Below, piece after piece: positions 266 to 907 of a stretch of DNA of 31,156 nt. Position 1 is the first letter of the stretch, and each line of letters opens with the position of its first letter. The translations under genes and the position numbers were made by a program. The notes beneath the pieces are model-generated. The model searched no databases and was not told the DNA's origin. It saw only the letters and a program-made list of their open reading frames with translations. The DNA is from a virus: IMG/VR virus record IMGVR_UViG_3300045988_176073; one strand, given 5' to 3'.

Positions 266-312
266 AAGGCTCTATCCCTTATGTAGCAAAAGATAGAGCC
301 TTGTTTTATTTT
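266..312. terminator. Hairpin with an 11-bp stem (aaggctctatc/gatagagcctt) and a 15-nt loop, followed on the + strand by gttttattttt. It is probably a bidirectional terminator or insulator at the prophage edge.
   Basis: Inverted repeat 266-276/292-302 seen directly. A T-run follows on the + strand. The stop codon of the 306..518 gene lies immediately beside the stem. Confidence 0.55.
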
Positions 313-518
313 TCATCACTTTGTTCTAATTCTACTTGATAATTGTAAAGTTTTTCCGCAGTTTCTAGAGTTAAATTTTTGACTTTTCTTTTACCATTTC
401 TTAACTCACTTATGCCCCCATAGGAAATGCCAGTATCTTTTTTAATTTTATAATTCGATATTTCATTATTGTTTAGCAATTTTTCTATAACTGTATATAT
501 ATGATTAAACTGATTCAT
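306..518 (-). CDS. Small XRE-family helix-turn-helix DNA-binding protein, 70 aa.
   Basis: ORF with HTH-like segment ISNYKIKKDTGISYGGISELRNGKRK. The SD is weak. It sits downstream of the two small-peptide ORFs and is followed by a terminator hairpin. Confidence 0.6.
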   Translation of the reverse strand: MNQFNHIYTVIEKLLNNNEISNYKIKKDTGISYGGISELRNGKRKVKNLTLETAEKLYNYQVELEQSDEK

Positions 519-550
519 AAATTAAATAGGAAATGAAAAGAAATATTTTA

Positions 551-640
551 TTATTTTCTTCTTATTATATTAATGATAAACAAAATTAAAGATAATATAT
601 TTATATAAAATGTTAACTTCTTTCTCAATTCTCTTGTCAT
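551..640 (-). CDS. Small hydrophobic peptide of 29 aa (MTRELRKKLTFYINILSLILFIINIIRRK). Basic ends flank a single TM-like core, which is type I toxin-like.
   Basis: ATG preceded by a perfect SD GGAGGTGAGG with 4-8 nt spacing. I translated it by hand from the reverse complement. It is not in the supplied ORF track because it is under 60 aa. Confidence 0.45.
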   Translation of the reverse strand: MTRELRKKLTFYINILSLILFIINIIRRK

Positions 641-662
641 AGACCTCACCTCCATATATAAT
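635..662 (+). promoter_or_regulatory. Near-consensus sigma-A promoter on the + strand, TTGTCA-16 nt-TATAAT. It would drive an RNA antisense to the 35-aa peptide ORF.
   Basis: Hexamers at 635-640 and 657-662 read directly. There is no + strand ORF downstream. It faces the - strand promoter at 828-855. Confidence 0.4.
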
Positions 663-664
663 GA

Positions 665-689
665 GGTAAAGGGCTTTTAACCCTTTACC
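665..689 (-). other. Hairpin ggtaaaggg-cttttaa-ccctttacc (9-bp stem) directly 3' of the 35-aa ORF stop and 5' of the 29-aa ORF SD. It is a putative attenuator or processing structure. An alternative pairing CCUCA/UGAGG could sequester the SD.
   Basis: Inverted repeat seen directly. A moderately U-rich tract follows on the - strand. Confidence 0.4.
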
Positions 690-690
690 A

Positions 691-798
691 TTAAATGAAC
701 GATTTGATAAAATTAAGTATTTGAATTATTAAGCCTGTTATAGCTAATCGATACTTTATTTTTTCAATTCGTTCTTTTTCTTTTTCAATTCTTTTCAT
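691..798 (-). CDS. Small protein of 35 aa (MKRIEKEKERIEKIKYRLAITGLIIQILNFIKSFI). It has a charged N-terminal helix and a hydrophobic C-terminus.
   Basis: ATG 796-798 preceded by AAAGGAGAAGGAA. A -10/-35 promoter with an operator palindrome lies immediately upstream. A hairpin follows the stop. I translated it by hand. Confidence 0.5.
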   Translation of the reverse strand: MKRIEKEKERIEKIKYRLAITGLIIQILNFIKSFI

Positions 799-827
799 TT
801 CCTTCTCCTTTCTTTCTTGATACATAT

Positions 828-855
828 ATTATATCACATATGTGATATAATTCAA
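828..855 (-). promoter_or_regulatory. Near-consensus sigma-A promoter on the - strand (TTGAAT-16 nt-TATAAT). Its spacer and -10 are occupied by a perfect 20-bp palindrome, TATATCACATATGTGATATA (830..849), which is a putative operator.
   Basis: Hexamers and the perfect palindrome seen directly. The SD and ATG of the 35-aa ORF lie about 30 nt downstream. Confidence 0.55.
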
Positions 856-870
856 CTGTTTTTCTTAATT

Positions 871-904
871 TTTTTATAAAAAAACCATACCTCCTAGGTA
901 TGGT
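871..904 (-). terminator. Rho-independent terminator of the kinase-like operon. Stem accatacc/ggtatggt with a 5-nt loop, followed on the - strand by TTTTTTT.
   Basis: Inverted repeat 884-891/897-904. An A-run 871-883 on the + strand gives a T-run on the - strand. It lies immediately after the stop at 908. Confidence 0.75.
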
Positions 905-907
905 GTA

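Follow-up and report, generated by a model that had tools for sequence, protein, structure and literature searches.

As described in three reports, the helix-turn-helix (HTH) domain common to the anti-CRISPR (Acr) proteins AcrIIA13-15 recognizes inverted repeats in the promoter of its own operon (PMC7104187), AcrIIA15 forms a dimer on such a repeat in its crystal structure, with the inverted repeat IR2 located between -35 and -10 and the promoter repressed (PMC10901769), and the anti-CRISPR-associated (Aca) protein Aca11 has a 24-bp repeat between -35 and -10 as its binding site and represses its own promoter (PMC12282945). Here, we describe a cassette at positions 306-907 of the virus record IMGVR_UViG_3300045988_176073, a stretch of 31,156 nucleotides (nt) that is called the window throughout, in which an HTH gene of this family follows two small open reading frames (ORFs) for membrane peptides, termed A and B. 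The cassette is a real, conserved element, and its repressor-operator half is of a known kind, since the HTH protein is homologous to AcrIIA15 and Aca11, whose repeat binding has been shown. The peptide pair, together with a facing antisense promoter and a covarying long-range fold-back, appears to be undescribed. A full-text literature search for the peptide and HTH strings returned no paper containing them, and in the available portions of PMC7104187, PMC10901769, PMC12282945, and PMC13147308 nothing is said of small ORFs for membrane peptides or of antisense control at the AcrIIA13-15 or Aca11 loci.

The cassette is a self-contained accessory ("moron") operon in acr-aca operon layout, located at the attR end of a Staphylococcus prophage. 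The reading that we rank highest, and to which we give about an even chance, is that of an Aca-repressed operon in which A is a gated, harmful membrane peptide. The features on which the argument draws are the following.

828-855, minus strand: sense promoter, with TTGAAT (855-850), a 16-nt spacer, and a TG-extended TATAAT (833-828).
828-851: perfect 24-bp palindrome with the halves ATTATATCACAT and ATGTGATATAAT, filling the spacer and the -10 element; predicted operator of the Aca-type HTH protein.
789-802, minus strand: 5' strand of the fold-back, GGAAAUGAAAAGAA, spanning the A start codon and codons 2-4.
691-798, minus strand: peptide A, 35 amino acids (aa), MKRIEKEKERIEKIKYRLAITGLIIQILNFIKSFI, with a charged N-terminus, a C-terminal hydrophobic helix, and the Shine-Dalgarno (SD) sequence AAGGAG.
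665-689, minus strand: GC-rich hairpin, GGUAAAGGGUU/AGCCCUUUACC, 3 nt past the A stop codon and without a U-tract.
634-662, plus strand: antisense promoter, with TTGTCA (634-639), 17 nt, and TATAAT (657-662); 11 of 12 consensus matches.
668-905, plus strand: predicted antisense RNA, its 5' end inferred from the -10 element and its 3' end uncertain.
551-640, minus strand: peptide B, 29 aa, MTRELRKKLTFYINILSLILFIINIIRRK, with a basic N-terminus, one hydrophobic helix, and the SD sequence GGAGGTG.
529-542, minus strand: 3' strand of the fold-back, UUCUUUUCAUUUCC, 10 nt before the start codon of the HTH gene, which has no SD sequence; called the anti-TIR, as the stretch complementary to the translation-initiation region (TIR) of peptide A.
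306-518, minus strand: 70-aa Aca-type HTH protein, without an SD sequence, homologous to the AcrIIA15 N-terminal domain and Aca11.
263-305: 19-bp stem-loop closing the cassette, with its T-run (TTTTATTTTT) on the plus strand, followed by AGTTGCCCA arm-type repeats.
884-904: hairpin terminator of the 245-aa gene upstream of the cassette, with its T-run on the minus strand; the sole terminator-like site downstream of the predicted plus-strand antisense RNA.

Retrieval with an HTH alignment yielded 63 viral and 54 metagenomic loci, and a scan of genome contigs with the single protein gave two loci. By DNA and protein searches, the same gene order is found beside attP-R in the S. haemolyticus phage IME1318_01, and at least 17 versions of the cassette, with little or no nucleotide identity, are located at staphylococcal prophage ends. 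All versions keep the order promoter, A (30-46 aa), GC-rich hairpin, B (27-56 aa, one hydrophobic helix), and HTH gene (57-70 aa). Peptide A of the window type has a charged N-terminus followed by a C-terminal hydrophobic helix, and in the S. aureus-phage and L037 types the helix comes first and the C-terminus is charged.

In addition, chromosomes of S. aureus and S. schweitzeri contain three tandem decayed copies of the cassette beside glnA (L002 at 3400-5700 in S. aureus CP051994, downstream of glnA; also L009, L010, L012, L019-L021, and L082-L088). In these copies, stop codons interrupt A and the operator promoter has gone, and B and the HTH gene are intact. On two short viral contigs (L004/L014 and L007/L017), the upstream neighbors of the cassette, which we take to be phage structural genes, are not the HipA_2-like kinase pair found in the window (see below), and in L007/L017 A is frameshifted and the operator disrupted.

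The 70-aa HTH protein matches HTH_26 in Pfam (E 4e-5), and a profile search of the Protein Data Bank returns AcrIIA15 (E 7.6e-16) and Aca11 (E 3.8e-12) as the sole strong matches. Searched alone, the window protein matches the N-terminal domain of AcrIIA15 (8jfr_B) over 59 residues, 10-68 (E 1.2e-12), and Aca11 (9lx2_A) at E 1.5e-5. PHROGs places it in phrog_1529, which has no annotated function, and a PADLOC scan of the three cassette proteins returned nothing. An earlier note on this DNA had placed a 70-aa HTH protein at the end of the operon, as we do, but had taken it for a generic XRE protein; by its homology to AcrIIA15 and Aca11 it is assigned to an anti-CRISPR-associated regulator family, and this assignment, which the note had missed, places the locus in the acr-aca operon layout. 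The regulator lies downstream of its cargo in the order promoter, A, B, HTH, terminator, and inside the cassette neither a further sense promoter nor a strong terminator was detected. It ends at residue 70 without an Acr domain, and A and B match no family. Judged by homology, the window has the Acr-less (Aca-only) form of an operator-repressor type already characterized experimentally. The counterpart in IME1318_01 is a 195-aa HTH protein whose C-terminal domain matches the structures of AcrIIA13b (E 1e-71) and AcrIIA13 (E 2e-27) and which, on these matches, is AcrIIA13 itself. The module of peptide A, hairpin, and peptide B thus precedes a genuine AcrIIA13 in this phage. The available part of PMC13147308 enters a Staphylococcus-phage AcrIIA13 under the accession "ARM678220.1", which we take to be the IME1318_01 protein ARM67820.1.

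We infer that a dimer of the HTH protein binds the 24-bp dyad and represses its own operon. The minus-strand TTGAAT-16-TATAAT promoter with a palindrome in its spacer and -10 element, as reported in the earlier note, is present in the sequence, and the palindrome is indeed perfect, but it is longer than the 20 bp given there, the 20-mer at 830-849 sitting inside the 24-bp palindrome at 828-851. When the whole window was simulated 200 times with a Markov model, a gapless palindrome of at least 24 bp arose anywhere in just 3 of the runs. A counterpart of the sense promoter is found in 16 cassette versions, and most versions have dyads inside the promoter spacer, the sequence of which shifts with the recognition helix of the HTH protein: SYGGISELR goes with ATATC(A/T)CATATG(T/A)GATAT, PYQTVQDL with CACG-N6-CGTG, and SYGNINAMRRGER with AGTTCA-N2-TGAGCT, and between the dyads of the window and IME1318_01 there is a symmetric A-to-T/T-to-A exchange. 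The operator assignment is strengthened because each recognition-helix type has its own dyad, and the idea of a repressor on a palindromic operator inside the promoter finds support in the homology to the AcrIIA15 N-terminal domain and Aca11. When the window was searched for a second operator copy or an IR1 upstream of -35, none was found and the dyad was the only one. The recurrence of the palindrome core at 22338-22347, pointed out earlier, is chance: ACATATGT occurs three times against 1.0 expected, 8% of shuffles match this count, and there is no second operator-like site.

Two AcrIIA15-like loci among those retrieved (L035 and L036, upstream of the HTH gene at 2501) contain no membrane peptides and encode an 80-aa soluble protein instead. 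One of their two dyads, TTGCCAAATGGCAA, lies upstream of -35 and the other, TTGCCAGTTGGCAA, between -35 and -10, in agreement with the published IR1/IR2 layout.

Both small ORFs proposed earlier, of 35 and 29 aa, are present with strong SD sequences, and their conservation at homologous prophage ends was checked and found. At least one small hydrophobic ORF lies upstream on the same strand in 52 of 59 distinct loci, and two lie there in 37 of 59, as opposed to 8 of 59 on the opposite strand and 6 of 59 in the downstream flank. Close relatives of the peptides, of which there are 11 for A among called proteins, differ through in-frame indels. Because of this upstream enrichment over the controls and the in-frame indels, both ORFs are almost certainly genes. 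The pattern of charge and hydrophobicity persists, along with good SD sequences, in versions that share almost no sequence, and the C-termini of B are not conserved across versions. With 35 and 29 aa and one hydrophobic helix each, A and B are in the size range of type I toxins (<60 aa). Searches of Pfam and NCBIfam at E up to 10 with six peptides (A, B, and four variants) returned nothing meaningful, the Fst/Ldr and Hok/Gef family profiles did not match any of the six, and an Rfam scan of positions 1-3000 at E up to 10 gave noise only and no antitoxin RNA family. Weak PHROGs matches of the peptides to "high light inducible" proteins were disregarded. We also rejected a 44-aa form of A starting at ATG 825, as this start is not conserved and relatives read ATAAGT there. 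A database protein (P0009, MKRIEKEKERIEKIKYRLAITGLILFIINIIRRK) joins, in frame, the N-terminal part of A to the C-terminal part of B. We derive from it that DNA was deleted between stretches at which the two genes are similar, and this suggests that A and B are paralogs. The cargo of the cassette is, as far as these comparisons indicate, two paralog-like tail-anchored membrane peptides and not a soluble anti-CRISPR protein.

A feature that went unnoticed in the earlier note is the long-range fold-back, which would sequester the initiation region of A. In all eight window-type versions, the HTH gene lacks an SD sequence and a complement of the A start lies 5-11 bases upstream of the HTH start. 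The duplex energies range from -16 to -28 kcal/mol and are better than those of shuffles (p<0.005) in seven of the eight, and the helix belongs to the centroid structure of the 563-nt mRNA. When ten versions are aligned without gaps, 85% of cells are paired, compared with 37-52% when partner columns are slid; 11 of 16 pairs change on both sides, and the observed covariation score is attained by 0 of 500 shuffles. The occurrence of G-U wobbles in these pairs places the structure in the sense RNA. In those types in which B overlaps the HTH gene, the anti-TIR is found between the hairpin and B, and it is B that has no SD sequence. In every case, the A initiation site is predicted to pair with the region before the next SD-less gene. 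Translation of A may in this way be linked to translation of the repressor or, in the case of IME1318_01, of AcrIIA13. Two other explanations of the repeat were rejected. A "split SD", in which the fold-back brings the SD sequence of A to the HTH start, would have summed spacings of 7-20 nt by hand count, which is too variable, and a DNA inversion site does not fit the G-U wobbles and would cut through the A start codon.

The hairpin that follows the A stop codon, described earlier as 9 bp, measures 11 bp (about -16 kcal/mol), and such a hairpin, within a few bases of the A stop codon, recurs in 17 of 17 versions (-12 to -19 kcal/mol) with unrelated sequences. The facing TTGTCA/TATAAT promoter on the plus strand also stands, its position and spacing being conserved across divergent cassettes, but with a spacer of 17 nt and not 16. 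Its -35 element overlaps the start codon of B, as had been stated, and is the reverse complement of B codons 1-2 (ATG-ACA); its -10 element abuts the hairpin. In five versions that differ in peptide sequences and hairpins (the window, L018, L030, L073, and L125), the best antisense site falls at exactly the same place and has a 17-nt spacer, 11 of 12 matches, and shuffle p<0.002 each, and the -35 element is the complement of B ATG-ACA-A. Across the 17 versions, p is <0.05 in 12, and the sense strand of those stretches scores 6 to 8.5. In all seven versions in which B begins Met-Thr, the Thr codon is ACA. In the S. aureus remnants with a dead peptide A, the -10 element has gone from TATAAT to TTTAAT, and in L080, where A is likewise dead, the spacer has gone from 17 to 19 nt. 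The predicted antisense RNA is complementary to the entire A ORF, its ribosome-binding region, and the sense promoter, with the hairpin forming its 5' end. It overlaps A and not B, in keeping with the earlier suggestion of an RNA antisense to the 35-aa ORF.

Taken as a mechanism, a strong sigma-A promoter with the 24-bp dyad between -35 and -10 would drive A, the hairpin, B, and the 70-aa HTH gene, and the HTH dimer on the dyad would close its own promoter and act as a feedback brake. The conserved promoter between the peptide genes would make an antisense RNA running from the hairpin across the A ORF and its ribosome-binding site. In the sense mRNA, the start-codon region of A would pair about 260 nt downstream, just before the SD-less HTH gene, so that the fold-back closes A initiation and physically ties A to the start of the repressor gene. 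Peptide A would then be a membrane-active peptide that is harmful if overmade, and B its partner or a second effector. We read A in this way because the triple gating resembles that of type I toxins such as hok. The toxin-like component, if any, would be A and not B, because the antisense RNA overlaps A only and the fold-back closes the A start. Candidate biological roles are prophage addiction, exclusion or abortive infection, and anti-defense. Here, the harmful membrane peptide is suggested by the RNA-level controls, an anti-defense role by the acr-aca layout, and an accessory to lysis or exclusion by the position after the lysis genes.

The last two of these suggestions also make up alternatives to a harmful A. 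In a canonical anti-defense operon, A and/or B would act as anti-CRISPRs or other anti-defense factors or would assist the fused Acr. Their synthesis would come in a burst upon infection before Aca shuts it off, with the antisense RNA and the fold-back tuning only timing and stoichiometry and no toxin involved. We hold this to be unlikely, even with an HTH protein in the Aca/AcrIIA13-15 N-terminal family, an acr-aca-like layout (as given in the available parts of PMC7104187 and PMC12282945), and the same peptides lying upstream of a true AcrIIA13 in IME1318_01. Aca-regulated operons are also reported to contain diverse anti-defense genes in the available part of PMC13551039, a text in which the words "transmembrane", "antisense", "small ORF", and "toxin" do not occur. 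A single-helix peptide of 29-35 aa has no obvious means to block Cas9, however, the peptides are kept in the window where the Acr domain is absent, and antisense control plus a fold-back on one ORF has not been described for acr operons. The Acrs known to us are soluble proteins. Somewhat less credence still goes to an accessory of lysis, exclusion, or lysogenic conversion, in which A and B would modulate holin timing, block the entry of superinfecting DNA, or alter a host membrane protein, and the HTH protein would just keep expression in the lysogen low. The cassette does occupy the classic accessory-gene position, after the holin and amidase genes and beside the attachment-site arm repeats, both products are membrane peptides, and the region also holds a HipA_2 kinase pair here and a small RNA cluster in phiNM2 (PMC5496865). 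Its own promoter and terminator and an early-gene regulator of the Aca type do not fit late-operon control, though, and the antisense promoter and the A-directed fold-back are left unexplained.

The model of the earlier note, a toxin/antisense-RNA pair plus a repressor in which the 29-aa peptide B is a Fst/Hok-type toxin neutralized by the antisense RNA and the HTH protein is an added repressor, keeps its repressor and its facing promoter but loses B as the target, and we now consider it improbable. Although B is short, basic, and hydrophobic, survives in the S. aureus chromosomal remnants, and has its start codon overlapped by a real-looking antisense promoter, it matches no Fst, Hok, or other toxin family in Pfam or NCBIfam. 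In addition, the predicted antisense RNA begins upstream of the B SD sequence and runs away from it, sharing no sequence with the B mRNA region, and the fold-back closes the start of A and not that of B, whose SD sequence is strong and exposed. Pheromone precursors resemble B in shape, having a basic N-terminus, a hydrophobic C-terminus, and 27-31 aa. Together with the convergent promoters, as in prgQ/prgX, this would allow B, and perhaps A, to be an SHP/PrgQ-type pheromone precursor sensed by the HTH protein. We find this highly improbable, as HTH proteins of 57-70 aa have no peptide-binding domain, the longer forms carry Acr domains and not TPR repeats, and the C-termini of B are not conserved.

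Several points weigh against A as a gated harmful peptide. The N-terminus of A is long and charged, no toxin family matches the peptide, the acr-aca layout more simply predicts anti-defense cargo, and the literature search found no transcript, protein, or phenotype evidence for the cassette. The cassette versions share ancestry, and their counts are not independent. The register of the fold-back was picked per sequence by maximal pairing, which favors the unslid structure; the shuffle test of duplex energies is independent of this choice. Promoter-like hexamers are as common as expected in the AT-rich window (20 found, 22 expected), so that the significance of the antisense promoter lies in its conservation and not in the hexamers alone, and in the S. 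aureus phage-type cassettes the antisense promoters are weak (8 of 12 matches, p 0.08-0.26). A consistent antisense terminator was not found across the versions, save for the reversed upstream terminator in three.

More tentatively, and as a broader proposal that we think has rather less than an even chance, the locus might represent an overlooked, conserved module with a type I-toxin-like membrane peptide in AcrIIA13-type and Aca-only loci of staphylococcal phages. In it, the peptide start would be paired to the initiation region of the SD-less Aca or Acr-Aca gene, so that the repressor or anti-CRISPR would be translated in mechanical coupling with the peptide, and the antisense RNA would set a threshold.

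By its gene content, the window comprises a whole prophage of the siphovirus type from a coagulase-negative Staphylococcus, with an integrase (29835-30959, plus strand), HTH genes resembling CI and Cro, genes for terminase, capsid, and tape measure, and the lysis genes holin (3555-3950) and amidase (2598-3515). Its nearest matches are from S. epidermidis: phage PI-Sepi-HH2 shows 89% identity in the amidase region, and compared with S. epidermidis proteins the 70-aa HTH protein shows 99% and peptide A 89% identity. The lysis genes are followed by a HipA_2-like kinase and a 245-aa protein and then by the cassette, which is the final coding unit ahead of the arm-type repeats. Copies of AGTTGCCCA are found at both window ends (212-233, 254-263, and 30942-31024), direct plus one inverted at the left end and three directly after the integrase gene at the right end, and probably serve the integrase as arm-binding sites that mark the two prophage ends. 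The terminator that the earlier note placed after the HTH gene is there as the stem at 263-305, but its T-run is on the plus strand and not on the sense strand; its main effect may be to halt transcription entering from the host flank, or it may work in both directions. Two other loci (L011/L034, 3001-3207 and downstream) have unrelated peptides and an HTH protein 46% identical to that of the window. Their cassette end equals window positions 263-330, with the last 13 HTH residues (YNYQVELEQSDEK), the terminator, and the arm repeats exactly alike. From this shared 3' end, we derive a recombination junction inside the 3' end of the HTH gene and a swapping of cassettes as units.

A second accessory unit occupies the interval between amidase and cassette (908-2486). 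It consists of the HipA_2-like kinase (1646-2419, Pfam E 5e-8) and the abutting 245-aa protein (908-1645), which is without a Pfam family, and has its own promoter, TTCACA-17-TATAAT (2486-2458), and the terminator at 884-904. PHROGs places the pair in phrog_3162 and phrog_7610, both without annotated function, and PADLOC gives weak matches (PDC-M03A, E 0.0016); a defense or toxin pair is possible. Elsewhere in the window, the longest palindrome is a perfect one of 28 bp, AAAAACCGTCTTTCGAAAGACGGTTTTT, at 22030-22057, within an HNH endonuclease ORF (21956-22312) near the terminase genes. It resembles a bidirectional terminator.

Searches for anti-CRISPR and anti-defense genes by guilt-by-association start from aca genes. 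A and B have nevertheless escaped testing because they fall below the usual annotation threshold and are unannotated in most phage records. If A is a gated membrane toxin, it would found a new type I-like family in staphylococcal prophages, with consequences for how stable a prophage is, for exclusion and abortive infection, or for persistence. In the covarying pairing of the A start with the SD-less Acr/Aca gene, there would be a concrete mechanism for post-transcriptional control of anti-CRISPR dosage. Should the coupled module hold true, it would constitute a new anti-defense regulatory architecture, in which an autorepressor protein is joined by an antisense RNA made in cis and by an RNA switch acting over a long range, and it would define a new family of small peptides overlooked by annotation pipelines. 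The decayed cassette copies by glnA in S. aureus chromosomes would serve as natural knock-outs.

Among other prophage loci, phage phiNM2 shares the amidase-attR niche with the cassette. Here, Bronsard et al. mapped the sense/antisense RNA pairs srn_9342-9346, one of which encodes a 33-aa peptide, and they mention a "three-CDS insertion" between amidase and attR in NCTC8325 (PMC5496865). The phiNM2 cluster is a different sequence element, its peptide being unrelated and on the opposite strand, and we rejected it as the same element, as phiNM2 is without the HTH cassette and the window without srn_9344-like sequence. The sequence before the cassette in S. aureus-phage and IME1318-type loci (L043 at about 1900-2150, L001 complement at about 1100-1300, and L133 at 2600-2790), matched by eye, is nearly identical to the amidase-attP stretch of phiNM2, the region of srn_9342-9346; the window is without it.

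The yonT-yoyJ/SR6 locus of the B. subtilis prophage SPbeta, in which the RNA SR6 overlaps the yonT 3' end and the yoyJ 5' end, is, as far as the available part of PMC5848175 describes it, similar in having a prophage polycistronic mRNA with two tandem small peptides and an antisense RNA arising between them. It differs in that the RNA predicted here stops short of B and in that the SR6 system is without an HTH autorepressor, and there is no homology.

Like the AcrIIA13-15 and Aca11 loci, the cassette has a homologous HTH protein, an inverted repeat between -35 and -10, and the regulator as the last gene of the operon, and like the AcrIIA13 locus of IME1318_01 it is located at a prophage end after the lysin, with the A-hairpin-B module upstream. 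Unlike the AcrIIA13-15 loci, its HTH protein is without an Acr domain, it has one dyad and no IR1, and its cargo consists of two membrane peptides of about 30 aa. An antisense promoter and a fold-back set it apart from described acr operons.

At the RNA level, a close parallel is drawn with hok/sok, which combines a small membrane peptide, a cis-encoded antisense promoter, and a fold-back that closes the initiation region of the full-length mRNA. The cassette likewise has a small membrane peptide, a cis antisense promoter, and a long-range fold-back at the initiation region, with toxicity and the antisense RNA being putative here. It shows no sequence relation to hok/sok and differs in the charged N-terminus and C-terminal helix of its peptide and in the added protein repressor. 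In hok/sok the partner of the fold-back is the mRNA 3' end, whereas here it is an internal intergenic stretch before the repressor gene. In the coat-replicase (Min Jou) interaction of MS2, the start of a downstream gene is paired over a long range to an upstream coding region. The predicted fold-back of the cassette resembles it, as a downstream start region would likewise be held by coding sequence further upstream and translation of one could open the other, and it departs from it in that the upstream partner is itself a start codon, in the operon of a DNA phage.

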